DNA from: an uncultured Verrucomicrobiae bacterium
GTDB taxonomy: Bacteria; Verrucomicrobiota; Verrucomicrobiia; Limisphaerales; UBA11358
DNA: 64,000 nt
Assembly (NCBI GenBank): GCA_963708525.1
Contig: CAVPTH010000009.1
Location: forward strand, 94,648 to 158,647
Reading direction: 5' to 3'
The notes under the pieces were generated by a model. It was not told the origin of the DNA, ran no database searches, and saw only the letters and a program-made list of their open reading frames with translations. Shown in pieces: positions 12,067-46,858 of this stretch. Each line of letters starts with the position of its first letter. Positions within the stretch are counted from its first letter, which is position 1. The position numbers and the translations under genes are program-made.

Positions 12067-13133
12067 AGATTCTGGTCATTTCCCTCGCCGGTATCGGCGA
12101 CACACTCATTGCCACTCCGTTGATCCGCGAGCTGCGCGAGAATTTTCCCGGGGTGACCATTGATGCGTTCGTCAGGTGGCCCGGAGCGAAAGATTTGCTG
12201 GAACATAATCCGAACGTCAACCGCGTGTTTCAGAAAGACCTCATCTCCTGTGGAAAATTCGAGGTGGTGCGTTTCTTCCGGTCATTGCGTCGGGAACGTT
12301 ACCAGCTTTCCATCAATACACATCCGCAGGGCCCAAGGCTCTATCGCGTCGCCGCCTGGCTGGCCGGTGCGGAAGTCCGCATCAGTCATGAATATGAGCG
12401 TTTTTCCTGGATCGACCGGTTGCTGATGACCGGCTCGCTGCCGCAGGATTATTCGCGACACTCGATTGAGAACAATTTCGACGTGTTGCCGTTGATTGGT
12501 GCGAAGAAAAAACTGGCAGCGCATGAGATGGAATTTTATCTCGAACCGGGTGATGTACGGCTGGCGGGTGATTTTCTGGCCAGACACAATTTATCCGGCC
12601 AGAAGCTCCTGGGGATCCACGTCGGTTCCGGTGGAACCAAGAATCTCCGGCTCAAACGCTGGCCGTTGAAAAACCACGCCGGCCTGGTGCGACGGTTGAA
12701 CCAGAAACGGCCGGACATCCGGATCTTGCTTTTCGGCGGGCCGGAAGAAATCAAGGATCATCCGGTCGTGCTCGCCCAGGCGAATCCCGTTCTGACACTG
12801 GAAGTTAAAACTGAAAACCTGCGGCAGACCGCGGCATTGATGAAACGATGCCATGCCTTTTTGAGTGTCGACACCGTGCTCATGCATGTCGCGGCGGCAA
12901 TGAAAGTACCCCATCAGATTGTCATCGAAGCGCCCACCCTGAATGCGACCAACCTGCCTTATGGCAACGCGTTTACTCTGGTGAAAAACCCCGTCTTGGC
13001 GGGACGAAACCTGAATTATTACCGTTACGATGGCGGTGATATCAAAGGAACGCACGAAGAACTGGTGGCGTGCATGGCGTCCATCACCATCGACAACGTT
13101 TATGACGCAGTAAACAGGCTGATTCAGCCCTGA
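12063..13133 (+). CDS. Glycosyltransferase family 9 (heptosyltransferase-like)
   Basis: 356 aa. N-terminus MKILVISLAGIGDTLIATPLIRELRENFPG and GGPEE...D..LMHVAAA are typical of GT9. Confidence 0.85.
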   Translation: MKILVISLAGIGDTLIATPLIRELRENFPGVTIDAFVRWPGAKDLLEHNPNVNRVFQKDLISCGKFEVVRFFRSLRRERYQLSINTHPQGPRLYRVAAWLAGAEVRISHEYERFSWIDRLLMTGSLPQDYSRHSIENNFDVLPLIGAKKKLAAHEMEFYLEPGDVRLAGDFLARHNLSGQKLLGIHVGSGGTKNLRLKRWPLKNHAGLVRRLNQKRPDIRILLFGGPEEIKDHPVVLAQANPVLTLEVKTENLRQTAALMKRCHAFLSVDTVLMHVAAAMKVPHQIVIEAPTLNATNLPYGNAFTLVKNPVLAGRNLNYYRYDGGDIKGTHEELVACMASITIDNVYDAVNRLIQP

Positions 13134-13138
13134 TAAAA

Positions 13139-13858
13139 CTACAAAGCAAATCCCGCCGCCTTGGCGTCGGCCGCAAACGTCTTTACGGTGTCCAGCGACA
13201 TTTCCGGCAGCCCCGTCCCGACCAGCTTCATCGCCTTGTTCAAAATATCGTGCGGCACGGTGACAATTTTGCAGCCGCATTCCTCCGCTTGAAAAATATT
13301 CAATACTTCACGCACGCTGGCCCAGAGCAGTTCGGCCTCGGGCAACCCCGCCAGGATTTTATTGGCCTTCACCATGTGCGGCATCGGATCCTGCCCGACA
13401 TCGGCAATACGCCCGGCAAACACCGAAACCACGGCGGGCACTTTGGGATTGAGCGCCTTCGCAACCCCGGCGATCTGTTCCTCGGTGAAAATGGCGGTGA
13501 TATTGAGCTTCACGCCTTCGCCGGCCAGCTCGCGCACGAGCGACAATGAAGATTCGCTGCGCGTGTTGGTGATGGGAATCTTGACATAGACATTCTTCGC
13601 CCAGTCCTTGATTTTCAGCGCCTGCCGCCGCATTTCCGGAAATTCATCAGAGAATACTTCGAAGGAAATCGGCTTTCCCGTGATGCTTTTCAATATGTCC
13701 CGCGCGAACGCCTCGTAATCGTGCACTCCCACTTTGCGCATCAGCGTGGGGTTGGTCGTCATGCCCTTGATCAGCGGGTTGTTGTTCAACTGAAGCATTC
13801 CGGCTTTATCCGCACCATCGGCAAAAAGTTTGATCTTGAGACTGGCCAAATTTTTCAT
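13139..13858 (-). CDS. tal: Short-form transaldolase / fructose-6-phosphate aldolase family
   Basis: Start set at MKNLASLKIKLFADGAD. Has GMTTNPTLM and VYVKIPITN motifs. Confidence 0.85.
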   Translation of the reverse strand: MKNLASLKIKLFADGADKAGMLQLNNNPLIKGMTTNPTLMRKVGVHDYEAFARDILKSITGKPISFEVFSDEFPEMRRQALKIKDWAKNVYVKIPITNTRSESSLSLVRELAGEGVKLNITAIFTEEQIAGVAKALNPKVPAVVSVFAGRIADVGQDPMPHMVKANKILAGLPEAELLWASVREVLNIFQAEECGCKIVTVPHDILNKAMKLVGTGLPEMSLDTVKTFAADAKAAGFAL

Positions 13859-13896
13859 GTGGTTCACAAGATAAAACAACCCGGCCAATCTTCAAC

Positions 13897-14466
13897 TTAT
13901 TTCACTTCCGCCAGGATGATTTCAGCCGCTTCCAGCAGGTTTTTGACACAAAAATCAGGTAGCCGCTTCAAGTCTTCCGCATAACCGCGATCAATAAAAA
14001 TGGTCCGGCAACCGGCCGCGTGGCCACAATCCACATCACGCCAGCGGTCGCCCACCATCCAGCTTTGCGCGAGGTCAATGCCCAGTTCGCGCGCCGCACG
14101 CAGCAACATGCCCGGTTTGGGCTTGCGACAGTCGCAATCCGACAAATCCTTTCCCGGGTGATAACAAACTTCCACCCGGTCGAGCGGCAACCGCCGGCGC
14201 ATCTCCGCGTGAATCTCCTCGACCGCTTGCTGTTTTAAAGTGCCACGGCCGACGTCCGGTTGATTGGTCGCCACCACGAGCAGAAAACCCGACTGTTTCA
14301 AACGACGGCAGGCCTCCGGCACCTCGGGAAAGATTTCAAATTCGCTTAAATCCGCTGACGGATACGGTTTGCCATCGCGTTCCAGGGCACGGTTGATGAC
14401 GCCATCCCGGTCGAGAAAAACAGCGCGCGCGCCAGGGGACTTCTGAGTTTTAGAGATTTCAGACAT
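13897..14466 (-). CDS. gmhB: D-glycero-D-manno-heptose 1,7-bisphosphate phosphatase (HAD-IIIA)
   Basis: AVFLDRDGVIN (DxDGxxN), VVATNQPDVGRG, C..CDCRKPKPGML and VGDRWRDV. Confidence 0.88.
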   Translation of the reverse strand: MSEISKTQKSPGARAVFLDRDGVINRALERDGKPYPSADLSEFEIFPEVPEACRRLKQSGFLLVVATNQPDVGRGTLKQQAVEEIHAEMRRRLPLDRVEVCYHPGKDLSDCDCRKPKPGMLLRAARELGIDLAQSWMVGDRWRDVDCGHAAGCRTIFIDRGYAEDLKRLPDFCVKNLLEAAEIILAEVK

Positions 14467-14475
14467 TGGCGCGCG

Positions 14476-14507
14476 AATGACTAATGACTAAAACCTAATG
14501 ACGAATC
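14476..14507. repeat. Left imperfect inverted repeat flanking the four-helix-bundle gene
   Basis: AATGACTAATGACTAAAACCTAATGACGAATC pairs with the reverse complement of 14921-14956. 29 of 32 positions match, with one 4-nt indel. Confidence 0.8.
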
Positions 14508-14550
14508 AATGCCGAACCGCGAAGAATAAAGATAATAAAGGGAACCCATC

Positions 14551-14934
14551 TCATGACTTCCTCCAGATTGCGGCAAAAATAAGGTGTAATTCCTTTGCTT
14601 CCCGCCAAAGTTTGCGAGCGTCGGTCTTCAATTCCGGTTCAGCAGAGACAATCATCCGTAACCAAAGCTTGGTTTCGCGCGACTCTTTCCGACAGGTCCC
14701 AATCTTATTTTTGAAATCCTTTTTAGAAACCGCGTCATCTGCCTCGCAATAATTTGCCGCCACGCTTGTTCCAGAGCGGACGAACTGATCAATCAAGGGC
14801 AGAGTCACGGTATTCTTGGGAACCGTTTTGGCAAAACGAATCACAGCTTCGCCAAATACTGCGGTGCGTTCTTCCAAATCAAATGAAGTCCGCCCATTGG
14901 GTTTGTCATTCGGAATTGGAGATTCATTAGTCAT
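14551..14934 (-). CDS. Four-helix-bundle protein (23S rRNA intervening-sequence protein / Avd family, TIGR02436/PF05635-like)
   Basis: 127 aa. ..QFVRSGTSVAANYCEADDAVSKKDFKNKIGTCRKESRETKLWLRMI matches the family signature (RSGTS.GANY.EA...SK.DF..K....KE..ET..WL). Confidence 0.85.
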   Translation of the reverse strand: MTNESPIPNDKPNGRTSFDLEERTAVFGEAVIRFAKTVPKNTVTLPLIDQFVRSGTSVAANYCEADDAVSKKDFKNKIGTCRKESRETKLWLRMIVSAEPELKTDARKLWREAKELHLIFAAIWRKS

Positions 14935-14956
14935 TAGGGTTTAGGAATTAGTCATT
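14921..14956. repeat. Right imperfect inverted repeat flanking the four-helix-bundle gene (contains its start codon and overlaps the gmhA stop)
   Basis: GATTCATTAGTCATTAGGGTTTAGGAATTAGTCATT. Its reverse complement aligns to 14476-14507. Confidence 0.8.
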
Positions 14957-15548
14957 TCGTAGACTCCCACTTGGTTTGGGCGACTTTAAGCTTTGGGTGG
15001 GAGACGAACAAATGCCAGATGACAGCCTGAAACGCCTCGCTGTGGGGCGTGATGTGTTCCGGGTTTACCGTCGGCACAATCACACAGGCTGTTGCTTCTT
15101 TGGCCGTGTAGCCACCGTCGCGTCCCACAATGCCAATAACGGAAGCACCGGCTTTTTTTGCGACTTGAATGGCGCTGACCAAATTCGGACTGACATTCTT
15201 CTCAAGATTGCCGCCACCCACCGAAAAAATCAGCAGACCGTCTTTTGCGTTCAGGCGGCTGCCCTTGAGCCATTCGGAAAAAATCGTTGCCCACCCTTCG
15301 TCATTGGTCCGCGCGGTCAACTCGGAAACATTGTCCGTGGGCGCGTAGGCCTCGAAACCGCAGATTTTGCGGAAGTCATTGACGGCATGGCCGGCGTTGC
15401 CCGCACTGCCGCCGACGCCAAGGATGAACAGGCGCCCGCCGCGTTCGCGTACGCGTGCCAGTTCCCCGGCGGCCTTTTCAATGGCGTCAACATTCAGTTG
15501 CGCGACAACTTGTGATACTTCCCCCAGAAATTCTTTTGCAAAGCTCAT
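14952..15548 (-). CDS. gmhA: D-sedoheptulose 7-phosphate isomerase (SIS domain)
   Basis: 198 aa. GGRLFILGVGGSAGNAGHAVNDF and LLIFSVGGG are typical of GmhA. Confidence 0.9.
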   Translation of the reverse strand: MSFAKEFLGEVSQVVAQLNVDAIEKAAGELARVRERGGRLFILGVGGSAGNAGHAVNDFRKICGFEAYAPTDNVSELTARTNDEGWATIFSEWLKGSRLNAKDGLLIFSVGGGNLEKNVSPNLVSAIQVAKKAGASVIGIVGRDGGYTAKEATACVIVPTVNPEHITPHSEAFQAVIWHLFVSHPKLKVAQTKWESTK

Positions 15549-21792: not shown

Positions 21793-23073
21793 ATGAGAAA
21801 GAACTCAACCGAGTTTAAGGAACGCAAAACCAGCGGTTTGTTGCAGAGTGGCCTTATCTTCTCTGCTGTCAGTTTCGTGACGGGCATGGGTAATCTGGCC
21901 TTTCAAGGCGTCATGGGACATCACTTAAAAGGGATCGGCGAGTATGGTGTCGCCAACAGTGCCTTGGGTGGTCTGATGAACCTGCTGGCATTATTGCCTT
22001 CAGTCGCCACGTTTGCCGTCACGCACTACATCGCCCACTTCCAGGCCAGCGGCGACACAGCTCGGCTGCAGGGACTGCTTTTGGGTTGCCGTCAATTGTT
22101 GTTTCGCCTGACGATCGCCGGTTCGGTACTGGCCATCATTCTGGTGAGACCGTTGAGCGATTTTTTCCATTATTCCCAGAGCCTGACCCTGGTAACGCTT
22201 GGCTGCGCCCTGTTTGGACTGTGGGCCGCTCTGGCCACGGCTTTATGCCAGGGCCTCGCCTGGTTTAAACGGCTCGCGCTCATCGGCCTTTTGGCGATGG
22301 TCTTGCGGGTCGGATTTGGCTGGCTGGTTACCTTGAAATGGCCTTCGGCGGAAACGGCGGTACTAGCCTCGGGCTTCGCGTTACTGGCCAACCTGGCCCT
22401 GCTTTTCTGGAGAAGAGATTTATCGCTGCACGGCACGCCCGTCTCCCCTTGGAACCGTGAATTCGTTCAGTACTTGGCCGTGAGCGCTGCGTTCGTCATT
22501 GGGAATTTTTGTTTCTTTCAGAGCGACCAACTGGTCGCCAGAAAATTTTTCCCACCGGACGAACTCGACGCCTACATCGCGGCCGGCATTTTGGCGCGCG
22601 CCTTGCCGATGACGGTTGCGCCGTTGTTGTTGGTATTATTCACTTCGCGCTCGGGCGAGCGCGTGGGCGACAACCTGGCGGAACAACTTAAACTGGCTGC
22701 ATTGTCCGGCCTTGGCCTGGTGCTCGGGGCGATCGGTCTTTTTTTACTCCGGGCGTTTTGCCTCAAACTTCTGAACAGGTACACACCGGAAGCGGCCGCC
22801 ATGGTCGGCCAATTCGCCGCTATCATGGTGCTTGTTGGTCTGCTGCAATCGCTTGCCTACTGGGCACTCGCCAGTCGCTGGTTGAAAATTTCCATCCTCT
22901 ACGGCGCATTCGGAATCGGTTACTGGTTCATCTTACTCGCGGTCGGGAAGACCCCGGCCATGCTGCTACAAGCCATGCTGGCTGCTGCCGGTGCCGTATT
23001 CAGCATTTTGCTGGTCTCCTGGCTGGTTACAATGCAACGGCATCAATTGGTCCGCTCCGCAAAGCTGATTTGA
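21793..23073 (+). CDS. Polysaccharide/oligosaccharide flippase (Wzx / MOP-superfamily-like) membrane protein
   Basis: 426 aa with about 12 predicted hydrophobic segments. It lies at the head of a glycosyltransferase string. Family assignment is by architecture only. Confidence 0.6.
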   Translation: MRKNSTEFKERKTSGLLQSGLIFSAVSFVTGMGNLAFQGVMGHHLKGIGEYGVANSALGGLMNLLALLPSVATFAVTHYIAHFQASGDTARLQGLLLGCRQLLFRLTIAGSVLAIILVRPLSDFFHYSQSLTLVTLGCALFGLWAALATALCQGLAWFKRLALIGLLAMVLRVGFGWLVTLKWPSAETAVLASGFALLANLALLFWRRDLSLHGTPVSPWNREFVQYLAVSAAFVIGNFCFFQSDQLVARKFFPPDELDAYIAAGILARALPMTVAPLLLVLFTSRSGERVGDNLAEQLKLAALSGLGLVLGAIGLFLLRAFCLKLLNRYTPEAAAMVGQFAAIMVLVGLLQSLAYWALASRWLKISILYGAFGIGYWFILLAVGKTPAMLLQAMLAAAGAVFSILLVSWLVTMQRHQLVRSAKLI

Positions 23074-23104
23074 ATTCGTCACTGGTTTCGGTCAGACTCG
23101 TCCC

Positions 23105-24119
23105 ATGCCGTCCGGGCCGGAAAATCTGCCGCGCGTCAGTTTCATCATGCCGACACTTAACGTCGAAGCATTGCTGGAAAATGCCCTGTCGTCCATTACC
23201 CGCCAGACCTATGCCACGCGATCGATACGAGATACTGCTGGCGGACGCGCACTCGACTGACCGGACGCGTGAAATCGCCCGAAAATACGGCGCCATCGTC
23301 CTTGATGACGACGGCAAAAACATGGAAGAAGGCAAACGGCTCGCGCTCCGCCACGCCACCGGCGAATATATTGTGTTCATGGATGCCGACAATGAAATCA
23401 CCCATCCCGATTATGTTGAACTCGCCGTGAAGGCGTTGTCGACGAACCCACAGGCGCTGGGCGTGGAAAGTTATTATTTGCCATCGCCAAAGATGAGTTC
23501 GTTCTGTGTCTACCTGACCCATCTGCTTCACATCAGCGACCCGATTGCCTGGTTGATGTGCGCTAAACCACGACTGGTGGCGCGTGATGGCGAAATCGAG
23601 CGCTGGGCACTATCCGGCGATTCGTTGTCCTATCCCCTGGGTGCCAACGGTTTTGTCTTCCGACGTGAGGACCTGGGTTCCGTTAAAGCCGACGAACATT
23701 TCCAGGACACACACGCGGCGTTGCACCTCATGCGAGCCGGCAAACGCGAATGGCTCCGGATACACGGGCGCGGGGTACATCACTATTATGTCCAAACCTG
23801 GTGGGGATTCGTGCAAAAGCGCCGTCGCGCGACCGTACATTTCCTTCGCGTGCAGGAGGAAGCCAGGACAAATTGGATGAAGGAAAAGCCGCGGGTCCCG
23901 CTTTGGCTGGCGGCGGTTTATTGTGTCACCTTGATCGGCCCGCTCTGGCACACCGCACGGGGTTTAGTCCGCGACAGCGACTTATGCTGGCTCTGGCACG
24001 TACCCGCGTGCCTCGCGAGCGTCGGTGGCAATGCCTGGGGGATGTGGACTTACAAACGGCACGGGAACGAAAAAAAACTGATCGCCGAATTGCAGGTGAA
24101 ACAGAATTTGAAACCCTGA
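23105..24119 (+). CDS. Glycosyltransferase family 2 with C-terminal membrane segments; apparent 1-nt frameshift near 23211
   Basis: The frame from ATG 23105 gives the GT2 N-terminus PRVSFIMPTLNVEALLENALSSITRQTY and then stops. The frame of ORF 22758-24119 continues PRDRYEILLADAHSTDRTREIA...FMDADN. An alternative intact start is ATG 23211. Confidence 0.75.
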
Positions 24120-29588: not shown

Positions 29589-30104
29589 ATGTCCACCAGC
29601 TGGCAGCATGTCGAAGTGCGCGGGATTATTGAGATTCCCAACTTGCCGGGCGTACTCGTCGAAGCACTGCCGGTTTTCACGGACGTTCGCGGCAGTCTCC
29701 ATGAACTGTACCGTTCCGATGAAATTCCGAAAAAATTCAAACCGGTGATGGCCTGTTGCTCCTGGTCGACCCCCGGGGTGACCCGCGGTCCACATCAACA
29801 TGTTTTCCAGGACGATTATTTTGTTTTTGCAGGTCCGTCAGATTTTCGGGTTTATTTGTGGGACGACCGTCCCGGTTCAGCCAAGGCAGCCAAGGGCTGG
29901 TTCATCAACACCGGCGCGAGCGCGCCATCACGTGTTTATGTTCCGCGTGGTGTGGTTCACGCCTATCGTAATATCGGCATTGTCCCCGGGGTGGTCGTGA
30001 CCGTCACCAGCCTGCTATTCCAAGGCGAGGGCCGCCAGGAACCGGTGGATGAAATCCGCCATGAACTGGATTCGAATTCACCTTACCGGCCTCCTCAATC
30101 ATGA
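29589..30104 (+). CDS. RmlC-like cupin sugar epimerase (dTDP-4-dehydrorhamnose 3,5-epimerase family)
   Basis: 171 aa with FTDVRGSLHELY..., RGPHQH and VPRGVVHAY, resembling the RmlC fold. The exact activity is uncertain. Confidence 0.6.
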   Translation: MSTSWQHVEVRGIIEIPNLPGVLVEALPVFTDVRGSLHELYRSDEIPKKFKPVMACCSWSTPGVTRGPHQHVFQDDYFVFAGPSDFRVYLWDDRPGSAKAAKGWFINTGASAPSRVYVPRGVVHAYRNIGIVPGVVVTVTSLLFQGEGRQEPVDEIRHELDSNSPYRPPQS

Positions 30105-31350
30105 TTCGCGAACGAACACTTTGCCGTACCTGCGGCTCAAAAAATCTCCGACTGATCCTTGATCTTGGCCATACTGCATTGGCCAATGATTTTCTCGATC
30201 CCGAGGAGGTTGCAAACTATAAGATCTCCCTCCCGTTGCGTGTCGTGCTGTGCCAGGATTGTTCCCTGGTACAACTGGCCGACACCGTTGACCCGAAAGT
30301 TCTCTACTCACGCTACGCTTACATTACCTCGACTTCGCGCACGATGGATGCGCACTTGACCGATCAGTCGGCACATCTCCTGTCCGTCGGTCATTTTGGC
30401 GCACGCCCAAAGGTTTTGGAAATCGCCAGCAATACCGGGGTATTCCTGAACAAATTCAAGGAGCGCGGCTGTGAAGTTCTCGGCGTGGAGCCGGCAAAAA
30501 ATATCTGCGAGGTTGCGCTGAAATCCGGCATCCCGACCCGCAGCGAGTTCTTCAACGCTGCCAATGCCGCAAAAATTAAAGCGGAATGGGGCACGGCGGA
30601 TTTGGTTTTGGGACGGCACGTTTTCGCGCATATTGACGACCTGGGCGATTTGCTCGGTGGATTGGAAGCGGTTTCGCACCCGGAGACACTGATCGCTTTC
30701 GAGGTGCCCTACCTTGTTGATTTCTTTGAGCATACGGAATACGACACGATTTATCACGAGCATTTGTCTTACATTTCGGTTCGCGCGCTCGAGGCGCTGG
30801 TGAAGAATTCGCCGTTTGCATTGTCCCGGATTGACCATTATCAGATTCACGGCGGTTCGATTTTGTTTCATTTGCGTCACCGCTCGTCGAAAGTCGTAAT
30901 CGATGAAAGTGTCGCAAAAGCTCTGGAAGTGGAGCGTCGCCTGAAGCTGGCTGAACCCGTCACCTGGAGGAAAGTTTACCGAAAGGGTCGACCACGTACG
31001 CACAGAATTGCCCGCTCTCGTGCGGCGTCTCAAGTCACAGGGTAAACGCATCATCGGCTACGGTGCATCCGCAAAAGGCAACACCCTGCTCAATACCTGC
31101 GGTCTCAGCGCAAAAGAACTCGACTATATCATTGATAACACTCCGTTTAAGCAGAACAAAGTCGCGCCCGGCTCGTGGAGTACCCATTCGACCGCCGGAA
31201 ACATTACTCAGGGAACAGCCGGATTTTGCCTTGTTGCTTGCATGGAATTTCGCTCCGGAAATTGTCGGACGCGAAACGGAATATCAAAAGCGCGGCGGAC
31301 GGTTCATCGTTCCCATCCCTGAACCGAAAATTGTTGGATTTCCGGCATAA
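30101..31350 (+). pseudogene. NDP-hexose C-methyltransferase (TylC3/NovU-like: zinc ribbon, SAM methyltransferase and C-terminal domain), interrupted by two 1-nt frameshifts
   Basis: N-terminus CRTCGSKNL...LCQDCSLVQL (Zn ribbon), VLEIASNTGVFL (SAM motif) and YHEHLSYIS. The reading continues in a second frame (KFTERVDHVRTELPALVRRLKSQGKRIIGYGASAKGNTLLN) after AGGAAAGTTT at about 30971. It continues in a third frame (GVPIRPPETLLREQPDFALLLAWNFAPEI...RFIVPIPEPKIV) after about 31176. Confidence 0.75.
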
Positions 31351-31797: not shown

Positions 31798-34700
31798 TCA
31801 CTGGCTGAGCAGCAAGCGATAAAATCGATTTGTCTCCGTCATCTGAACCGACTCCAGATATATACCACCTATTTGAATGGGCGGATTGGACACAATCACC
31901 CAATCTGCCGGAGACAGACTGGGAGTGGTTTCCAGTACAAAACCAGGTGAGCTCTGGGGCCAGAAGATATATAAGTTATTGCCTGATGGCGTCGCTCCGA
32001 GCGTCGGCGGCAGATGGACGGTCAGCACCGCGTTGGAACTGAGGACGGAATTGACGAGATTGCTTACCAGTACGGCGTATTGACCTGCCTGACTCAACTG
32101 AACATTGGTCAACACCAGGGTCGCGTTGGTTGCATTGGCAATGTTGGTCTGATTAAAGTTCCATTGATAACGTAACGGCATTGTGCCGGAGGCGGTCACA
32201 GCAAAACTTGCGGTGCCTCCAACATAAATCGTCAGGTTCGTAGGTTGGGCGGTGATCATCACCGGCGCCAAAACCGTCAAGAGAGCATTGGAACTGGTGA
32301 TGGAGCCGTACGCGTTGGTCACCAGAACCGAATAGCTGCCCGCGTTGGTCAATTGGGCATTGGCCAGGATTAATGCAGCATTGGTCGCCCCCGTGATGTT
32401 CGTAGTATTGAACATCCACTGATAACTCAAGGGCGGTGTCCCGTTTGCACTGACAGTAAAGGTGGCGGTCTGGCCCACCACCACCGTCTGATTGGTCGGC
32501 TGCATCGTAATCACCGGGAGCTGGCCAGGCGGACACTTGCCCCCGCTACCAGCCAGGTAAATCGCCGCCATCTCATTGGAGGACAACACACGATTGTACA
32601 CACTGAATTCGTCCAGGCTCCCTGCCCACAGCGTCGGCGGCACATCGCTTGCCCGCACACCCAAATAGAAGTCATAGCTGGTCTGCGGAACAATGTTGGT
32701 GGGAAAAGTTGTTTGAGCTACATTGACTCCGTTTAAATAAATCGTCGCCACTCCTGACGTTCGATCATAAGTAAACGCCACATGTTGATACACATTGGCA
32801 TGAACTACCCCGGCCGGCGATGCCAGTGTGTGATAACCATTGGGGGGATTGTTATTGGCGTCCTGGATGTTGAGGTACAAACATCCCGGTCCGGTGCCGT
32901 AGGAATCCCATAGGTGCACGCCCCATACACCTCCGTGGCTGTGGTTGTTCCACTCTACGATCGGCCGGGGGGCACTGTCGACGACAGAAGGATCAATCCA
33001 ACCTTCAACGGTCATCCCGTTCCCAACCCCGACATTCAGGCCGGAACTGGCCGGTACTCCTACATAGGCATTCGTTCCATTTAAATAAAACGCCTGTCCC
33101 ACCTCGCCATTGCTATAACTCAGGCCGCCTGCCGGCACTCCGTTGTTGGTTCCGATTAGGTCATTGGCATTGCCTTCCCCCGGCCACCAGCTCACCAATC
33201 CCGACGGCGCTGGATCACAATTGGTCGGAGATAGAACAACGGTCAACATCGCATTGGAACTGAGTGTGGAGCCGTACCTATTGGTCACCAAAACCGAATA
33301 GAAACCCGCATTGGTCAATTGCACGTTGGCTAGGATCAAGGAAGCATTGGTAGCCCCCGCGATGTTCGTTGTATTAAATGCCCAGTGATAGCTCAATGGC
33401 GGTGTCCCGCTTGCACTGACTGAGAACGCCGCCGTTTGACCTCCGATTACCGTCTGGTTGGTCGGCTGCATCGTAATCACCGGGGGCTGGCCAGGCGGAC
33501 ACTTACCCCCGCTTCCAGCCAGATAAATCGCCGCGATCTCGTTGGAGGATAATAGCCGATTGTACACACTGAATTCATCCAGGCTCCCTGCCCACAGCGT
33601 CGGCGGCACATCGCTTGCCCGTACACCTAAATAGAAATCATAACTGGTTTGCGGTACGATGCCGGTGGCAAACGTTGTCTGCGCTACATTGACACCGTTC
33701 AAATAAATCGTCGCCACTCCTGACGTTTGATCATACGTAAATGCCACATGTTGATACACATTGGCATGAACTATCCCGGCCGGCGATGCCAGTGTGTGAT
33801 AACCACCGGGGGGATTGTTGTTGGCGTCCTGGATGTTGAGGTACAAACATCCCGGTCCGGTGCCAAAAGCAGAGCTTGGCTGGGAATCCCATAAGTGCAC
33901 GCCCCATACACCTCCGTGGCTGTGGTTGTTCCACTCCACGATCGGCCGGGGGGCACTATCTACGACAGCAGGGTCAATCCAACCTTCAACCGTAAGACCA
34001 TTGTTGGTCCCCACATTCAGACTCCCACTGGCCGGTACTTCTACATAAGCATTCGTTCCATTTAAATAAAACGCCTGTCCCACCTCGCCATTGGTATAAC
34101 TCAGGCCGCCTGCCGGCACTCCGTTGTTGGTTCCGATTAGGTCATTGGCATTGCCTTCCCCGGGCCACCAGCTCACCAATCCCGACGGCGCTGGATCACA
34201 ATTGGTCGGAGGCAGAACAACCGTCAGTATGGCATTGGAACTGAGCACCGAACCCGCCAGATTGCTCACCATCACTGCGTAGGTGCCTGCCTGGTTGAGC
34301 TGGACGTCATCCAATATCAGCAAGGAGTTCGTTGCGCCGCTAATGTTCGTCGTATTGAATGTCCAGTGATAGCTCAAGGGCGGTGTCCCGTTTGCACTGA
34401 CGGTAAAGGTGGCTGTCTGGCCCACTACCACTGTGCTGTCAGCGGGTTGGTTGGTGATGACAGGGGCCATGGGGGTAAAACACTTACCTCCACCACCAGC
34501 CAGGTAGATCGCCCCAATCTCGTTGGAGGATAATACCCGGTTGTACACACTGAATTCATCCAGACTCCCCGCCCACAGCGTCGGCGGCACATCGCTTGCA
34601 CGTACACCTAAATAGAAATCATAACTGGTTTGCGGTACGATGCCGGTGGCAAACGTTGTCTGCGCTACATTGACACCGTTCAAATAAATCGTCGCCACTC

Positions 34701-35103
34701 CTGACGTTCGATCATACGTAAATGCCACATGTTGATACACATTGGCATGAACTATCCCGGCCGGCGATGCCAGTGTGTGATAACCACCGGGGGGATTGTT
34801 GTTGGCGTCCTGGATGTTGAGGTACAAACATCCCGGTCCGGTGCCATAAGCAGAGGCTGACTGGGAATCCCATAAGTGCACGCCCCATACACCTCCGTGG
34901 CTGTGGTTGTTCCACTCCACGATCGGCCGGGGGGCACTATCTACGACAGCAGGATCAATCCAACCTTCAACCGTAAGACCATTGTTGGTCCCCACATTCA
35001 GACTCCCACTGGCCGGTACTTCCACATAAGCATTCGTTCCATTCAAATAAAACGCCTGTCCCACCTCGCCATTGGTATAACTGGCCGCCGGCCGGCGTAC
35101 CAT
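31798..35103 (-). CDS. Repetitive LamG (concanavalin-A-like lectin) / Ig-like domain surface protein, (LamG-Ig)x3 plus Ig plus a C-terminal ...FYRLLLSQ domain; lacks its own signal peptide
   Basis: 1,101 aa containing three units of about 327 aa. Each unit has a LamG-type segment (GEVGQAFYLNGTNAYVEVP...GWIDP...IYLNGVNVAQTTF...LDEFSVYN) and an I-set-like Ig domain (PVITMQPTNQTV..GQTA.F.V.A.GTPPLSY.W.FNTTNI.GATN..L.L..VQL..AG.Y.V.V.N). Confidence 0.85.
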   Translation of the reverse strand: MVRRPAASYTNGEVGQAFYLNGTNAYVEVPASGSLNVGTNNGLTVEGWIDPAVVDSAPRPIVEWNNHSHGGVWGVHLWDSQSASAYGTGPGCLYLNIQDANNNPPGGYHTLASPAGIVHANVYQHVAFTYDRTSGVATIYLNGVNVAQTTFATGIVPQTSYDFYLGVRASDVPPTLWAGSLDEFSVYNRVLSSNEIGAIYLAGGGGKCFTPMAPVITNQPADSTVVVGQTATFTVSANGTPPLSYHWTFNTTNISGATNSLLILDDVQLNQAGTYAVMVSNLAGSVLSSNAILTVVLPPTNCDPAPSGLVSWWPGEGNANDLIGTNNGVPAGGLSYTNGEVGQAFYLNGTNAYVEVPASGSLNVGTNNGLTVEGWIDPAVVDSAPRPIVEWNNHSHGGVWGVHLWDSQPSSAFGTGPGCLYLNIQDANNNPPGGYHTLASPAGIVHANVYQHVAFTYDQTSGVATIYLNGVNVAQTTFATGIVPQTSYDFYLGVRASDVPPTLWAGSLDEFSVYNRLLSSNEIAAIYLAGSGGKCPPGQPPVITMQPTNQTVIGGQTAAFSVSASGTPPLSYHWAFNTTNIAGATNASLILANVQLTNAGFYSVLVTNRYGSTLSSNAMLTVVLSPTNCDPAPSGLVSWWPGEGNANDLIGTNNGVPAGGLSYSNGEVGQAFYLNGTNAYVGVPASSGLNVGVGNGMTVEGWIDPSVVDSAPRPIVEWNNHSHGGVWGVHLWDSYGTGPGCLYLNIQDANNNPPNGYHTLASPAGVVHANVYQHVAFTYDRTSGVATIYLNGVNVAQTTFPTNIVPQTSYDFYLGVRASDVPPTLWAGSLDEFSVYNRVLSSNEMAAIYLAGSGGKCPPGQLPVITMQPTNQTVVVGQTATFTVSANGTPPLSYQWMFNTTNITGATNAALILANAQLTNAGSYSVLVTNAYGSITSSNALLTVLAPVMITAQPTNLTIYVGGTASFAVTASGTMPLRYQWNFNQTNIANATNATLVLTNVQLSQAGQYAVLVSNLVNSVLSSNAVLTVHLPPTLGATPSGNNLYIFWPQSSPGFVLETTPSLSPADWVIVSNPPIQIGGIYLESVQMTETNRFYRLLLSQ

Positions 35104-35185
35104 TGTTGGCTCCGATTATGTCATTGGCATTGCCTTCCCCGGGCCACCAGCTCACCAATCCCGACGGCGCCGGATCACAGGGCAA
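32260..35185. repeat. Coding tandem repeat, 3 units of about 963-981 bp
   Basis: The Cys codon of CDPAPSG recurs at 35177-35179, 34198-34200 and 33217-33219 (spacing 979 and 981 bp). The out-of-frame track ORFs 33731-33934 and 34712-34915 are the same 67-aa string with 3 differences. Confidence 0.95.
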
Positions 35186-37751
35186 TCACCGTTAAATTGG
35201 CGTTAGAACTAAGTGTGGCGCCGTAAACGTTCGTTATCTCCACCGAGTACGTCCCCGCCTCACTGAATTGCACATTGGTCAAAGTCAGGGTGGCATTCGT
35301 CGCTCCTGTGATATTTGTCGTGTTGAAAGTCCATTGATAAACGAATGGTTTGGTGCCCACCGCCACCACAGCAAACTGGGCGGTTCCGTTCAGACCTACT
35401 GTGACATCGGCAGGTTCCTGGGTAATTACCGGCAGAGAGGGAATAATGGTCAACAGCACATTGGAGCTTATCGCAGTGCCGGCGGCGTTGCTCACAATGA
35501 CGTTGTAATATCCCACGTCGGCCCCGAAAGCATTGCTGATGATCAGATTCGGCGTCGTAGAGCCCGAAATGTTTCCTCCATCTATCAGGTTATTGCTGTT
35601 GTACTGCCACTGATAATATAACGGCAAGCCTCCGGTGGCCGTTACCGTGAACATAACCGCTTGCCCGTCCAACACCGCCTGGTTGGTCGGTTGCTGGTAA
35701 TCGTCGGAGGACTGAGCACCGCCAAAGCAAACTGACGGCTCCTGTCCGACCTGGTCATTCAAATTGGTGAACCAGACCGTCGCATAGTAAGTCCCGACCA
35801 GGAGGTTGCTGGCAACTGAATTCAAACTGATAACTACATTGGTTGCCGGTCCACCATGGGCCAATGTACCGCCACTGGCCGAAGCGTTAAGCCACAATGA
35901 CGTGTTGACCAGGCTCCAAGTCAGCAAATTGGTTCCCACGTTGGTCAGCGAGAAGTTCTGCTTTGTCACGGTGAAAGGACCACCCACCCCGCCCAGAGAT
36001 GTAAATCCGATGTTCGGGGTGATCTGCAGGGCCTCCGGATTGGCCAATGCACTGATCAGCTTTTGTCCATTGGGGGTGCCCCAACCGGTACATAAATCGT
36101 AACCGGTCACTGCGTAGAACTTGGTCGGGCTGAAAGGACTGGTATTGTTGCCAGTGGTGATATCGTGGAAACACGCCGTATAATTAGGACCGCTGCCAAT
36201 CGTATCAACCGCGGGATTGATAAAGCCCACCGCCGGTGCACCCGTAGCCGACGCCTGTTGATTCACCAGTGCTGTAAATCCCGCCCATAGTGGCGCGGCA
36301 CAACTGGTGCCTCCGACGTTGTAATCAGAGCCGTTGGCCCGAACATAAACATTGTCCGCCGTCAACGCTACATCTGGCGTGTTCCGCATTGTCGTCGATC
36401 CCTGGCTGGCCGTCATGTTGATATTCGTCTGCCAAAACGGAATCGGATATTGTGTGCTGATCCCACCGCCGCTGCCTATCCCATTGTCCCAATTCCACAC
36501 CCTCTCGGATACCCATACCCCACTTGCATTGCTCGTAGTCAATGTGGTTCCACCCACTTGAGTGATGTTGGTGCTGTCTCCCGGAAAATCAATCAGTCCG
36601 GTATAGGCATCGTAATCACCGGAAGCATTGTAGAAGGACTGTCCTTGTGCAGCCATCTCCTTCCAGACCTGCTCAGCCGCCGGCTCGGCCGGTCCGTTAG
36701 GGGCATACCAGGAACAACTCAATTGCTTGGCCAGATTGTCCGTGGCCATGCGATTGAGAATGTCCTCAAATGGACTCGGATTTGGAGCTTCGTAAACCAT
36801 CACCCGCGACAATCCGGGTGCCATTGAAATTGCCATTTCGATGTCCAGTGATACTTCTACTTCCCCGCCGGTGTGCGAAGGATTCCCGGTGGCACCATCG
36901 ATCAATACATTCGTCAACGTCACGTTCGGCAAGCCGGCCTTGTTTGCATAGTAAGTAATGTCGCTGGCCGTATAACCGTCGAATTGCAGCAGCCCCACCA
37001 CTTGTCCTGTTCCGTTCAACGTTGTGTCCGGGACATAAGCCGCGCGAAAATCGTTTCCCATGAAGGCGCCGCCGGGACCTGAACCAGCGTTGGATGTTAT
37101 CCCCTGTCCTTGAATCATCGACTTAACCCGATAATGCGGCCGCGGCAACGAATAACTGTTCAGCCCGCCAATACTCAAGATCGGCACCGCCAAATCCACC
37201 GTCGGTTCCTTATCCGGCGCGTAGAACGTTCGCGCTTCTCTCGGATGGTGATACTCCTGCAGGTTCACATGCATTACCCGTTCGATGTCGCCCACCGACG
37301 CGCGCACGTCCACCAGCATCCGGTTGGGATGCACGGTCGTCACCGTCAGCCCGTTGGCTTTGGCAAACGCGATCACTGCCTGATAATCCTGTTCCGTGGG
37401 CCCAAATCGTTCGGTGAACTGTTCGGGGGTCAGGTAATGATGGTAGTTCGGACTGGCCGGGTCATAGATTTCCCGGAGCAAATGGTCCAGGGCTTCGGGG
37501 TTGCGCAGTGGCAACCCGATGGCCAGATTTAAACGTTGGGAACGGTCCATTGCTCCGATGGGTTGCAAACCGGCGGTTGCCGCAGGCAACCGGACGGGCA
37601 CCACCTGCAGCTCAGCTGCTTGGCTGGTGAAAGCAAGCGGAGAAATCGTAACTGCCAAAGTCGTCCCGAGGAAAACGGCAGCCTTTTGGCACCAATTTAT
37701 TCGCCAGTCAACCAACCATTGAAGTATTTCCATAGCAAACTCCTGATTCAT
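35175..37751 (-). CDS. Peptidase S53 (sedolisin/kumamolisin-like) with pro-kumamolisin activation domain and C-terminal Ig-like domains
   Basis: Signal peptide present. The prodomain reads LRNPEALDHLLREIYDPASPNYHHYLTPEQFTERFGP. Catalytic elements are GGEVEVSLDIEM, NASGDYDAY and GGTSCAAPLWAG. There are two C-terminal Ig repeats (PLYYQWQY.., KPFVYQWTFNTTNITGATN). Confidence 0.88.
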   Translation of the reverse strand: MNQEFAMEILQWLVDWRINWCQKAAVFLGTTLAVTISPLAFTSQAAELQVVPVRLPAATAGLQPIGAMDRSQRLNLAIGLPLRNPEALDHLLREIYDPASPNYHHYLTPEQFTERFGPTEQDYQAVIAFAKANGLTVTTVHPNRMLVDVRASVGDIERVMHVNLQEYHHPREARTFYAPDKEPTVDLAVPILSIGGLNSYSLPRPHYRVKSMIQGQGITSNAGSGPGGAFMGNDFRAAYVPDTTLNGTGQVVGLLQFDGYTASDITYYANKAGLPNVTLTNVLIDGATGNPSHTGGEVEVSLDIEMAISMAPGLSRVMVYEAPNPSPFEDILNRMATDNLAKQLSCSWYAPNGPAEPAAEQVWKEMAAQGQSFYNASGDYDAYTGLIDFPGDSTNITQVGGTTLTTSNASGVWVSERVWNWDNGIGSGGGISTQYPIPFWQTNINMTASQGSTTMRNTPDVALTADNVYVRANGSDYNVGGTSCAAPLWAGFTALVNQQASATGAPAVGFINPAVDTIGSGPNYTACFHDITTGNNTSPFSPTKFYAVTGYDLCTGWGTPNGQKLISALANPEALQITPNIGFTSLGGVGGPFTVTKQNFSLTNVGTNLLTWSLVNTSLWLNASASGGTLAHGGPATNVVISLNSVASNLLVGTYYATVWFTNLNDQVGQEPSVCFGGAQSSDDYQQPTNQAVLDGQAVMFTVTATGGLPLYYQWQYNSNNLIDGGNISGSTTPNLIISNAFGADVGYYNVIVSNAAGTAISSNVLLTIIPSLPVITQEPADVTVGLNGTAQFAVVAVGTKPFVYQWTFNTTNITGATNATLTLTNVQFSEAGTYSVEITNVYGATLSSNANLTVIAL

Positions 37752-39623: not shown

Positions 39624-40695
39624 ATGAACACACTAAAAGCTAAAATCATTTGTCTATTTGTCGCGTTGTCGCTGACGGTTACCTATTACTACGTCGTCAA
39701 ACCGTATGCAATGGGCACTCCGGGGAATGGGACGAATTTCTGGGTTTTTTCGGCCATGTCCCAAACCAGCCCCCATCTAAGTGCGATTTACCCCGTCTGG
39801 CGCTCTCGCGTTGGGGGTATGTGGATTACGGGAAAACTGGTGGACAGTGCAGTGAAGAATGGCGAACTCCGGATTGAAGACGTGCAACAGTTATTTGGGC
39901 TCTACCAGTCTGCGTGGCTCTTTCTGTTTTTTTTGATGCTGATTTTTCTTGTGGACGATCCGTTATTCGTCGTCACGGCCTGTTTTGCCTGCATGTTGTA
40001 CATGTTCACACCCAGGGCGAATTATTACTCCTACCCTTGGGATTTGCCGGGCATGATCTTTTTCACATTGAATTATCTCCTTTGGCGTAAAAAGCGTTTC
40101 AATCTTATGCTATTGGTGCTGTTCGTGGGTTATTTCTTCAAGGAAACCATCATTTTATCCGGGGTGTTGTTCTTTTTTACCGACCTGACAAAAGCCTATA
40201 AGATCCGATATCTCGCGGCTACGGCTGGCATTGCTTTCTTAATGAAAGCCGGAATTACTTTGGTCATCGACGGTAGAATCTCATTCGTCACCAACCAGTT
40301 CATCTCGGGTACCTCGGACGAACGGTTCTAAAAACTTCCAACTCCTCATTAATCTGAAGGACTTGGCCACACCGACCCTGAATCATTTCATTTTCACGAA
40401 TGGTGGCACTTTTCTCATTTCCCTGTGTCTGCCAATGAAGACGCAGGTTGAAAAAGGGACAAAAGCGGTGATCGGCATCTTCGCTTTGGCTGCGCTTTTG
40501 GCCGGTGCCTTGAACGAATTTCGAATCATGTTGGATATCCTGCCGATTTCCATTCTAGCCATCCGCGAATATCTGGTAAATCCACGTAACGCGGTTGTCT
40601 CTGATCAGATCCCGGACAAACGATCGCCTTCCAAAATTGAACGGGCGGGCAAAACCATCGATTCCCGGAAAATTGCTGCCAATGATAAAAAATGA
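39624..40695 (+). CDS. Polytopic membrane protein of unknown function; may be one gene (39624-40331 plus 40363-40695) joined across a 1-nt frameshift near 40320
   Basis: Start at MNTLKAKIICLFVALSL. Several hydrophobic segments are present. The downstream 110-aa ORF is also hydrophobic, and its frame is open back through the stop of the first ORF. Confidence 0.5.
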
Positions 40696-44164: not shown

Positions 44165-46858
44165 GTGAACGCCACGAAACCACACATCACCACTAAGTTC
44201 CAAGGCCTTTCGGTTGGGCTGATGCTGGCAATAATTCTGGGATTGTTATTTTGGAAATGCTTTTTGCCGAACTATGTTCACTTCAACAACGACGGACCGC
44301 TCGGGCAGCAAAATGCCGCCTGGCACCAGCTGTCCTGCCGGCTTTTCCGGTTGCTGGTATGACTTGAACGACATCGGCAGTAGCGCAGGCATCATCGCAC
44401 CGTCTTTGAGCACGCTGATTCATTTGGATGCTGGGCCCGGTCGGCTGTGCAAAATTTATCGCGCCCATCGCTTTGCTCATATTAGGTCTTTGTGCCTGGA
44501 ATTTTTTCCGACAATTGAAGCTCTCACCATTGGCGGCGGTTTTGGGTGCCTTGGCGGCAACACTGATTTCCACTTTTTTTTCGGACGCCTGCTGGGGCAC
44601 GGCTCCGCATCAAATCGCTTTCGGGATGGATTTCCTGGCGCTGGCCTTGATTGTTTCCAATTCAGCCACGACCCCGTGGTTTGTTCGTTGGGCGCGACTG
44701 GCCCTGGCGGGATTCGCCGTAGGAATCAACGTGGTTGAAGCAGCAGATATCGGCGCCATTTTCAGTCTGTTCGTCGCCGCGTTTGCTCTGTTCCACTCGC
44801 TCACGGAAACCGGCACCGTGGCCAGAAAAATTGGTCATGGAATCGGACGTGTCGTCATCATTAGCCGCATTTGCGGGTTTTTTTGCCGCTCAAACCATTC
44901 AAGCACTGGTCGGCACCAACATTCAGGGCATCCTCGGCATGAAACAAAATGAGGAAGCAAAAGCGGCGCAATGGGACTGGGCCACGCAATGGAGTCTTCC
45001 CAAAGCCGAGGCATTTGGAATCATTGTGCCCGGACTGTTCGGTTACCGGATGGATACGCCGGATGGCGGCAATTACTGGGGCGGCGTCGGACGCGACGCG
45101 TCTTGGGATCGTTATTTTGCCAATGGAGAACAGGGTTCACCACAAGGGTTCCAGCGTTTCTGTGGCACTGGCAACTATGCGGGTATTCTGGTCATTTTGG
45201 TGGCCGCCTGGGCGATTGCACAATCGTTGCGCCGACAAAATTCAGTATTCTCGGAAACACATCGGCGATTTCTTTGGTTCTGGACAGCGGTGCTGCTGGT
45301 TTCACTGCTTTTGGCATTTGGTCGATTTGCCCCGTTCTATCAGTTCTTCTATGCGTTGCCGTACTTTTCGACCATTCGCAATCCCATGAAGTTTCTTTTC
45401 GTCTTTTCCTGGGCCATCGTCATCATCTTTGCCTACGGCATCCACGGGTTGAGTAGACGCTATTTGGAAGTTCCGGCGACCGGTTCTGGTTCAGTGTTTG
45501 CCCAGTTTAAAACGTGGCGGGCCAAAGTCCGCGGTTTCGACCGGAATTGGATTTCGGTCTGTATCATCATTTTGATAGGCGGTCTGCTGGCCTGGTTGAT
45601 TTATGCGTTACAGAAACCAAACCTGGTTGCCAATCTTAAATTGGTGGGTTTTCCCGATGAAAATATGGCCGGCCAGATTGCTGCTTTCAGCATTCATCAA
45701 GTCGGCTGGTTCGTTTTATTTTTCGCACTCGCGACCGCATTGCTCGCCTTGATCTTGAGCGGGGCTTTTGCCGGGCGCCGGGCCAAATGGGCCGGAATAT
45801 TGCTTGGCGCGTTGCTGCTTTTGGACCTGGGACGCGCGGATTTACCCTGGATTGTGTTTTGGAATTATCCGCAAAAGTATGCGAGCAATCCCGTTATTGA
45901 GGTGCTACGTGACAAACCCTACGAGCATCGTGTTGCCATGTTGCAAACCCGCTCGCCGGACCACTTGCCCCTTTACGATGACCAGTTTGAAGGCCTTTAC
46001 AATATTGAGTGGTCCCAGCAACTGTTCACCTATTACAACATCCAGTCGCTGGACGTTATTCAGATGGCGCGCATGGCGGAGGATTTGGCAGCTTACCGCG
46101 GAGCACTGGCACCGCGAGGGACACTGGATACGGCATATCTCATTGCCCGTCGTTGGGAACTAACCAATACGCGCTACCTGTTGGGTCTCGCCGGCTATCT
46201 TGATGCGCTGAACACAGAACTCGACCCGGCCAGACACCGGTTCCGGATCGCTGTCCGATTTGATGTGGTGCCAAAACCGGGCATTGACCGAGTCACCAGT
46301 TTTGAACAATTGACCGCCCTGCCCAGTGATAACGGCGCTTGTGCGCTGTTTGAATTTACCGGTGCGCTACCACGTGCCATGCTGTATTCCCAGTGGCAGG
46401 TCAGCACGAACGATAGCATGACGCTTCAGACACTCGTTAGCGCGAACTTCGACCCTTGGAAATCGGTCCTGGTCTCTACGCCATTACCAGAGATGCCGGC
46501 GGGCAACGCGACCAACGAGAATTCCGGCACAGTTGAATTCAAAAGCTATGCCCCGGCCGATATCCTGTTAAACGCGCAGGCCAACGCGCCGTCCGTGCTG
46601 CTGCTCAATGACAAATTTGACCCGAACTGGCATGTGTTTGTAGATGGCAAATCTGCTCCCCTGCTTCGCTGCAATTTCATCATGCGCGGGGTTTATTTGC
46701 CTCCCGGCACCCATTCGGTGGAATTCAAGTTCTTGCTTCCGATGGGCCCACTTTATATCACCCTTTCGGCCATCAGCGTTGGAATTCTTTTATGCGGATT
46801 TCTGATTTTTTCCACACGGCGGATCGCCCACCGTTTAAGACCGGTCCATCAGGTTTGA
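44165..46858 (+). pseudogene. Large YfhO-like (GT-C-type) membrane protein, N-terminal 700 bp broken by three +1 frameshifts
   Basis: Four consecutive ORFs (44165-, 44274-, 44428-, 44735-46858) read on as one hydrophobic protein. The joins are ..AAWHQL/PAGFSGCWYDLN (about 44331-44336), ..STLIH/WMLGPVG (T-run 44423-44425) and ..GRVVII/AAFAGFFAAQ (about 44858-44865). FAPFYQFFYALPYFSTIRNPMKF resembles YfhO family proteins. Confidence 0.65.

Follow-up and report, generated by a model that had tools for sequence, protein, structure and literature searches.

A predicted S53 protease gene with tandem LamG-Ig units and homogenized LamG halves in an uncultured Verrucomicrobiae bacterium

Results

Three LamG-Ig units belong to one protease gene

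We analyzed a 64,000-nucleotide stretch of DNA from an uncultured Verrucomicrobiae bacterium (Limisphaerales, UBA11358; assembly GCA_963708525.1, contig CAVPTH010000009.1, positions 94,648 to 158,647), hereafter called the window, in which positions are counted from the first letter. The minus strand of the window carries a tandem array of three coding units (35179-32254), each of which encodes a LamG-like jelly-roll domain followed by an immunoglobulin-like (Ig) domain. The units start at Cys codons at 35179, 34200, and 33219 and are 979, 981, and 966 nucleotides (nt) long, respectively. With spacings of 979 and 981 nt and whole-unit identities of 82-87%, they constitute a tandem coding repeat. 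Tandem Repeats Finder was silent on the array, as its maximum period is 500, and we therefore used a repeat finder and our own alignments instead.

The array lies within a region (minus strand, 37751-31798) that is occupied by two long open reading frames (ORFs) in different frames: ORF1 (35175-37751, 858 amino acids (aa)) and ORF2 (31798-35103, 1,101 aa). The three units are parts of one gene of about 1,985 codons that spans both ORFs, a point missed in a preliminary description of this DNA. In order, the gene encodes a putative signal peptide, a pro-kumamolisin activation domain, an S53 catalytic domain, a BACON-like domain, two Ig domains, three LamG-Ig units, a further Ig domain, and a C-terminal tail. 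The orthologue in the closest relative (protein P0001 on contig L001, JGI 3300079526, Ga0669113_0001795, which is 94% identical at the DNA level and syntenic over 24 kb) has the same part order in one intact ORF. As assembled, the window gene is interrupted by two indels, and unit 1 is out of frame with both of its flanks.

The protease part was identified by a match to the Pfam pro-kumamolisin activation domain (PF09286, 3.4e-29) and by the alignment of residues 67-577 to pro-kumamolisin in the PDB (1t1e, E = 3.2e-53). Both catalytic motifs are present, namely the GGTS nucleophile motif (aligned to the mutated GGTA of 1t1e) and the E..D motif (GEVEVSLDIE). The protein thus combines an activation prodomain with a catalytic domain that bears the Ser-Glu-Asp triad motifs of S53 peptidases, and judging from these motifs the protease domain looks catalytically competent. 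It is preceded by an N-terminal signal-like hydrophobic segment (judged by eye). At the other end of the protein, the tail follows the pattern L.IFWP...GFVLE...W..V..PP...G..Y......FYRL, which we found in 61 of 239 collected related proteins, with or without a protease domain. The tail had no match in the Pfam library used, and it may be a sorting or anchoring domain. We also observed that, for the two Ig domains of ORF1 (35184-35696), the phage tail Ig-like proteins 9ncf_S (E = 8e-31) and 9c2d_S (E = 6e-28) outscore eukaryotic Ig domains.

The two halves of each unit differ in their history

The LamG halves are far more similar to one another than the Ig halves. At the DNA level, LamG identity is 95.9% between units 1 and 2, 89.1% between units 1 and 3, and 91.1% between units 2 and 3, against 65.6%, 65.2%, and 77.4%, respectively, for the Ig halves. 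The preliminary description had placed the unit starts at the same three Cys codons and had reported near-identical LamG halves next to substantially different Ig halves; repeat finding and unit alignment bear this out, as they do its observation that the out-of-frame ORFs at 34712-34915 and 33731-33934 differ at 3 of 67 residues.

This contrast is even stronger at synonymous sites. Using Nei-Gojobori estimates of synonymous (dS) and non-synonymous (dN) divergence, we found a dS in the LamG core of 0.04 between units 1 and 2 and of ~0.3 for either against unit 3, versus 2.7 (units 1 and 2), 1.6 (units 1 and 3), and 0.72 (units 2 and 3) in the Ig halves. The dN/dS ratio is 0.09-0.31 throughout (0.09-0.22 in the Ig halves), and because it is this low everywhere, the Ig halves are under purifying rather than diversifying selection. 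Between the window and L001, background dS amounts to 0.08-0.27. Given this background, the tract shared by units 1 and 2 postdates the split from L001, and the Ig paralogues, with a dS of 0.72-2.7, are far older.

Tracts of this kind were also detected by a GENECONV-type permutation of agreement runs at polymorphic sites, which gave P <= 0.0002 for units 1 and 2, for units 1 and 3, and for unit 3 and L001. Informative sites fall into blocks in which L001 pairs first with unit 1 (columns 8-82) and then with unit 3 (column 231 through the end), and near-identity of units 2 and 3 is seen over columns 0-105 and 660-745. Consistent with this, the nearest neighbors of the window LamG domains are their paralogues in the same gene (92-96% identity), with the orthologue P0001 at only 88-90%. 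For the Ig domains we observed the reverse: that of unit 3 has its orthologue as nearest neighbor (95%), and that of unit 1 best matches Ig domains from other genomes (70-72%). Together with the low dN/dS, these neighbors identify the Ig halves as old paralogues that escaped homogenization. The suggestion in the preliminary description that gene conversion homogenized the LamG scaffold is therefore upheld, in contrast to its companion suggestion that the Ig linkers diversify.

Across the family, LamG is not the more conserved of the two domains. Among 236 within-protein unit pairs from 94 proteins, the median identity is 57% for LamG and 60% for Ig, and discordant homogenization occurs in both directions (P0236, LamG 100% and Ig 63%; P0190, LamG 39% and Ig 93%). 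These comparisons indicate that, in the window gene, concerted evolution affects the LamG halves only, and that the mosaic reflects gene conversion and not protein-level constraint. We propose that the array is old, that its Ig halves are long-diverged paralogues under purifying selection, and that its LamG halves have been overwritten by one another via intragenic non-allelic recombination (gene conversion). The latest tract would connect units 1 and 2 over about unit columns 100-610 and would postdate the split from the closest sequenced relative, and shorter patches would join units 2 and 3 at the head and at the LamG-Ig linker.

Frameshifts interrupt the assembled gene

The stop codon of ORF1 is a TGA made by the +1 insertion just before the first Cys codon, and the second break is a 2-nt deletion in the head of the first LamG domain (Table 1). 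Across the junction the protein can be followed in three frames: ORF1 ends in ...NLTVIAL* in frame 0, the first unit begins with CDPAPSGLVSWWPGEGNANDIIGANNGTPAGG in frame 1, and the rest continues with SYTNGEVGQAFYLNG... in frame 2. In addition, a compensated pair of indels within ORF1 scrambles 14 residues that are conserved in the homologues, which read GQ.RQF.LAVLSPP.IT where the window reads GQEPSVCFGGAQSSDDY; the conserved motif DRQFALAVLSPPTIT is replaced by EPSVCFGGAQSSDDY at 35696-35739. Since ORF2 is recorded as a separate 1,101-aa protein (P0121) on a 414-kb contig, the breaks belong to the deposited sequence.

Such breaks are not confined to the protease gene. Three neighboring genes within the 24-kb syntenic block are likewise split over two or three frames relative to intact counterparts in L001, and their shifted segments are still 80-100% identical to L001, except for a single stretch of 99 aa (71%). 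This pattern points to indel errors in the consensus over this region of the assembly. Because neighboring genes are frameshifted too, we consider it likely that the two gene-splitting frameshifts are consensus errors of an error-prone, probably long-read, metagenome assembly, in which case the protein would probably be made intact.

Alternatively, the frameshifts could be real. The gene would then be a recent pseudogene, or be reduced to an 858-aa protease that lacks the LamG modules and the tail, with the array in decay. The presence of the indels in the deposited sequence, with ORF2 as a record of its own, agrees with this explanation, as do their positions outside homopolymer runs and the fact that the net +1 and -2 shifts leave the frame unrestored. 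We nevertheless find it rather unlikely, given that at least three neighboring genes of unrelated function are similarly frameshifted against L001 and that no relaxation of constraint is seen in the array or the tail (dN/dS 0.13-0.31). Moreover, a break of this kind interrupts the orthologous gene in the long-read metagenome-assembled genome (MAG) of a relative (contig L007), for which another assembly gives an intact, near-identical protein. Programmed frameshifting was rejected on inspection, as neither site has a slippery heptamer and the net shift does not compensate.

Elsewhere in the window, the plus-strand ORFs at 21793-23073 and 22758-24119 lie in different frames and have 315 nt in common, and the second holds a family 2 glycosyltransferase (GT2) domain. 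This overlap may be another frameshift.

A variable loop lies within the LamG domain

The preliminary description had assigned most differences between the LamG halves to a single hypervariable loop. The three loop peptides (WDSQSASAYGTGPG, WDSQPSSAFGTGPG, and WDS-----YGTGPG) are present and the coordinates it gave for unit 2 are right, but the loop of unit 1 lies at 34846-34863 and not at 34865-34882, and the deletion in unit 3 spans 15 nt, that is, five codons instead of the six that had been counted. The concentration of differences in this loop did not hold up. Units 1 and 2 differ at 10 LamG amino acids, of which three are in the head (aa 21, 24, and 28), three in the loop (aa 108, 109, and 112), and four are scattered, and unit 3 differs from both by six substitutions at aa 54-69 besides its loop deletion. 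Clustering in the loop is found within the homogenized 514-nt core, where a 14-nt span contains 4 of the 10 nucleotide differences between units 1 and 2 (P = 0.009), but not across the whole LamG half (P = 0.26, non-significant).

All four nucleotide substitutions in the unit-2 loop (T>C, G>A, C>G, and A>T) are non-synonymous, compared to five synonymous and one non-synonymous among the remaining six core differences (Fisher one-sided P ~0.024, hand-computed). The loop of P0001 reads QSASAY and that of the other W-type sequences (P0143 and L003) reads a near-identical QSASSY, from which it follows that both the substitutions in unit 2 and the deletion in unit 3 are derived. In an AlphaFold model of unit 2 (37-sequence alignment; predicted local distance difference test (pLDDT) 93.3), the loop joins strands 98-105 and 119-125. 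Across 345 LamG domains of the family its length ranges from 1 to 18 residues, with a gap fraction of 0.4-0.6 at aa 107-111, and positions 78-85, 92-99, 127-134, and 193-204 are equally variable. What remains of the single hypervariable loop is thus one of about five variable, indel-rich loops, with two events in the window: the 4-nt cluster in unit 2 and the 15-nt deletion in unit 3. The loop is a genuine soft spot, yet one of several. A scan of metagenome contigs with unit 2 returned 78 loci, the best of which is 57% identical, and thus no population sample of this LamG type; a scan of genome contigs returned relatives at <=76% identity only.

The loop could instead be a target of directed hypermutation, by a diversity-generating retroelement (DGR) or a similar system, or of strong diversifying selection that tunes ligand specificity. 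Such targeting would account for the four out of four non-synonymous changes in unit 2 against the mostly synonymous remainder of the core, for the unit-3 deletion falling on the same five codons, and for the indel-rich nature of the loop across the family. We consider it improbable, however, because there are two events only, four other loops are as variable family-wide, and unit 3 has more substitutions at aa 54-69 than in the loop. A DGR in particular was rejected: Pfam scans, which covered the protease gene and ten other large ORFs of the window but not the smaller ones, revealed no reverse transcriptase, no further LamG copy that could serve as a template repeat is present anywhere in the window, and the loop changes are not adenine-specific.

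Unit number varies among relatives and assemblies

The number of LamG domains is 0-4 among the 39 family proteins with both protease and tail, and reaches 7 in other LamG-Ig proteins of the set. The L001 gene (P0001) has one unit, with a head that resembles unit 1 and a tail and Ig that resemble unit 3. Because units 1 and 2 have Ig paralogues that are older than the split from L001, the single unit appears to reflect either loss through unequal recombination or collapse during assembly, and not an ancestral state. On L007, a 1.4-Mb contig of a long-read MAG, two units (12566-14325) are 100% identical over 855 nt, are spaced by 905 nt (not a multiple of 3), and have frame breaks at their junction; P0002, from another assembly and 99.9-100% identical to the L007 gene, has one unit. 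On the 2.2-Mb contig L003 there are three units (12494-15124), in which the first and third LamG domains are identical over 699 nt, the second is 74% identical to them, and the first is of the same type as the window LamG. Finally, the 2,059-nt contig of P0143 carries identical sequence at its two ends, as is typical of a collapsed repeat. As the preliminary description anticipated, the sequence similarity of the units makes copy number unstable both in evolution and in assembly, and some differences between relatives may be assembly collapse.

These cases raise the question of whether the window itself is affected, either by a wrong unit count or by cross-mapped reads that homogenized the consensus of the first two LamG domains during polishing. 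Family arrays are clearly mis-assembled elsewhere, as the identical ends of the P0143 contig and the one unit of P0002 in place of the two of L007 illustrate. For the window, we regard such an assembly or polishing artefact as very improbable. The overall difference between units is 13-18%, and 23-35% in the Ig halves, so that no two junctions are alike. In addition, units 1 and 2 share no exact match longer than ~137 nt, and L003, an independent long-read contig, has the same three-unit layout.

LamG fold and genomic neighborhood

The LamG modules were matched by Pfam Laminin_G_3 (PF13385) in three stretches at 2.9e-63. Foldseek returned ConA-like structures at a probability of 1.00 and template modeling (TM) scores of 0.5-0.8, including domain 4 of AbnA (5hon; target-normalized TM 0.79, root-mean-square deviation 3.0 Å), botulinum neurotoxin Hcn, NTNH, and the lectin-like domain of trans-sialidase. 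Based on this fold, we infer that the LamG modules are lectin-like and would bind a substrate or surface, thereby carrying or targeting the protease outside the cell. The product is likely a secreted or surface-held protease, with lectin-like modules that would bind a glycan or protein target and Ig domains that would act as spacers. The first and last LamG residues (aa 1 and 234; e.g. 35177-35179 and 34480-34482) are Cys in essentially all 345 aligned domains, which suggests a disulfide that would clamp the LamG ends together.

Between strains, the LamG module diverges beyond its flanks. Compared to the window protein, P0218 is 73-84% identical in the flanks and 63% in LamG, P0003 is 69-71% and 47%, and P0002 is 66-74% and 36%.

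The gene sits in opposite orientation inside a cluster for sugar modification and for deoxysugar and glycan synthesis (~24100-47650), which is syntenic in L001. Cluster members include a family 1 glycosyltransferase (GT1), three GT2 proteins, several methyltransferases, RmlD-like and other epimerases, a dTDP-sugar isomerase, and a TylF-like methyltransferase. Scans of the window for Rfam families and tRNAs gave no hits, and a scan for promoters and terminators gave results at chance level. The features of the gene and the frame-split neighbors are listed in Table 1.

Table 1. Features of the protease gene and frame-split neighboring genes, in window positions.
Feature	Position	Strand	Basis or remark
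Whole gene, both frameshifts repaired	31798..37751	-	ORFs, three-frame junction reading, Pfam, orthologue P0001
ORF1 as assembled, 858 aa	35175..37751	-	Pro-kuma_activ, S53 peptidase, BACON-like, two Ig; Pfam, PDB
Compensated +1/-1 indel pair in ORF1 (sites 35739/35696)	35696..35739	-	Indel list versus L001, translation comparison
+1 insertion, extra base (A on minus strand) versus L001	~35186	-	Just before first Cys codon; LTVLPCDP becomes LTVIAL*
2-nt (TG) deletion versus units 2 and 3 and L001	35082..35083	-	Second frameshift, in LamG 1 head
Unit 1 LamG-like, 234 aa after repair	34480..35179	-	Unit alignment, Pfam
Unit 1 variable hairpin loop, QSASAY	34846..34863	-	State shared with P0001
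Unit 1 Ig	34201..34479	-	'CFTP' linker type; nearest are Ig domains of other genomes
Unit 2 LamG-like	33499..34200	-	Nearly identical to unit-1 LamG half; low core dS
Unit 2 variable hairpin loop, QPSSAF	33865..33882	-	4 nt changes, all non-synonymous
Unit 2 Ig	33220..33498	-	'CPPGQ' linker type
Unit 3 LamG-like	32533..33219	-	15-nt deletion and private-difference patch at aa 54-69
Unit 3 junction of 5-codon deletion	32899..32904	-	WDS|YGTGPG
Unit 3 Ig	32254..32532	-	Closest to orthologous Ig of P0001
Last Ig domain, outside 981-nt period	32011..32253	-	Pfam
C-terminal tail, ~70 aa, and stop codon	31798..32010	-	Ends in ...FYRLLLSQ
Homologue of 870-aa unknown protein, frame-split	44222-46858		
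Homologue of 355-aa unknown protein, frame-split	39624-40692		
Homologue of 415-aa C-methyltransferase-like protein, frame-split	30101-31344		

Discussion

Our findings support, with good confidence, the explanation that the three units belong to an S53-protease gene whose LamG halves were homogenized by conversion and whose frameshifts stem from consensus errors. Several points weigh against this explanation. The indels lie outside homopolymers, which is atypical for some long-read error profiles, and both the copy number and the frameshifts of the window are taken from the assembled consensus. Conversion is formally inseparable from a recent partial duplication that replaced the LamG segment alone, both being forms of non-allelic recombination. 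Finally, identity to the Foldseek matches is only 11-19%, and the role of LamG and the location of the protein rest on fold and architecture. An alternative without any conversion, in which a single old triplication left LamG under strong purifying selection and Ig under relaxed or diversifying selection, would fit the greater likeness of the LamG halves at the protein level as well, but it is scarcely credible since it is already contradicted by the >50-fold synonymous contrast between adjoining halves of the same units (0.04 versus 2.7), and it is at odds with the purifying selection on the Ig halves, the family-wide medians, and the 95% identity of the unit-3 Ig to its orthologue.

We further speculate that LamG is an exchangeable recognition cassette, which is homogenized within an array and replaced or diverged between close strains, so that recombination would produce a variable lectin display. 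We regard this idea, which draws on the divergence of LamG beyond its flanks, as doubtful. If it were true, recombination at the conserved CDPAPSG...GGKC borders would give each strain its own ligand specificity and copy number, and the lectin display might be linked to the surrounding glycan-synthesis cluster. A literature search on LamG in Limisphaerales found nothing.

Overall, this is a genuine but ordinary case of concerted evolution of tandem modules, ordinary for the repeats of bacterial surface proteins and without a new mechanism. It offers a clean illustration of how concerted evolution acts at the level of single domains in a tandem array, here from an uncultured soil or peat Verrucomicrobiota lineage. 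It also carries a practical warning, as genes of this family are mis-assembled in two ways: units can be collapsed (P0002 versus L007), and frameshifts can occur in long-read MAGs. Protein catalogues therefore list fragments (here of 858 and 1,101 aa) and understate repeat number. Beyond this, the related proteins point to a large unstudied family of putatively secreted S53 proteases with 0-4 lectin-like modules, in which the binding domain appears to outpace the scaffold between strains.

Comparison with known systems

The N-terminal 580 residues align with the kumamolisin/sedolisin proenzymes (MEROPS S53; PDB 1t1e), with the prodomain and motifs present; unlike kumamolisin, which is without a C-terminal Ig/LamG extension, the window protein adds ~1,400 residues of Ig and LamG modules. 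The LamG modules share the fold of ConA-like/LamG jelly-roll modules (5hon, Hcn, NTNH, and trans-sialidase), but at the low identity noted above, and the family is set apart by the invariant Cys at both domain ends. Local variation within a binding-type domain is a feature that the window protein has in common with DGR variable proteins, but the reasons given above led us to reject that class.

Concerted evolution of tandem domain repeats by intragenic gene conversion is a general phenomenon. The window gene shares its hallmarks, in that paralogues of the same gene are closer than orthologues, identity blocks form a mosaic, and dS is low inside the tracts. It differs in that the tracts respect domain boundaries only roughly, and other family members homogenize the Ig half instead.

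The closest concept is the class of Periscope Proteins (SasG/Aap, Rib, Sgo_0707, and similar proteins), which have long, highly similar DNA repeats that encode folded domains, a functional N-terminal domain, length variation between strains, and a surface-anchored array that acts as a rod-like stalk; in this class, intragenic recombination is attributed to the high DNA identity of the repeats (Whelan et al., 2021; PMC8201768). The window protein departs from this class in its repeat unit, which is a two-domain module of 327 aa (unit model pLDDT 93) with one lectin-like LamG half and not a plain stalk domain, and only half of each unit is highly similar (89-96% DNA identity in LamG versus 65-77% in Ig). 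Its N-terminal domain is a protease, its host is an environmental member of the Verrucomicrobiota, and the likeness is drawn from sequence and repeat architecture. What the window protein has in common with Periscope Proteins is the overall plan of an N-terminal functional domain, a tandem array, and a conserved C-terminal end, combined with a repeat number that differs among close relatives (one in L001, three in the window, two in L007, and three in L003; 0-4 in the family).

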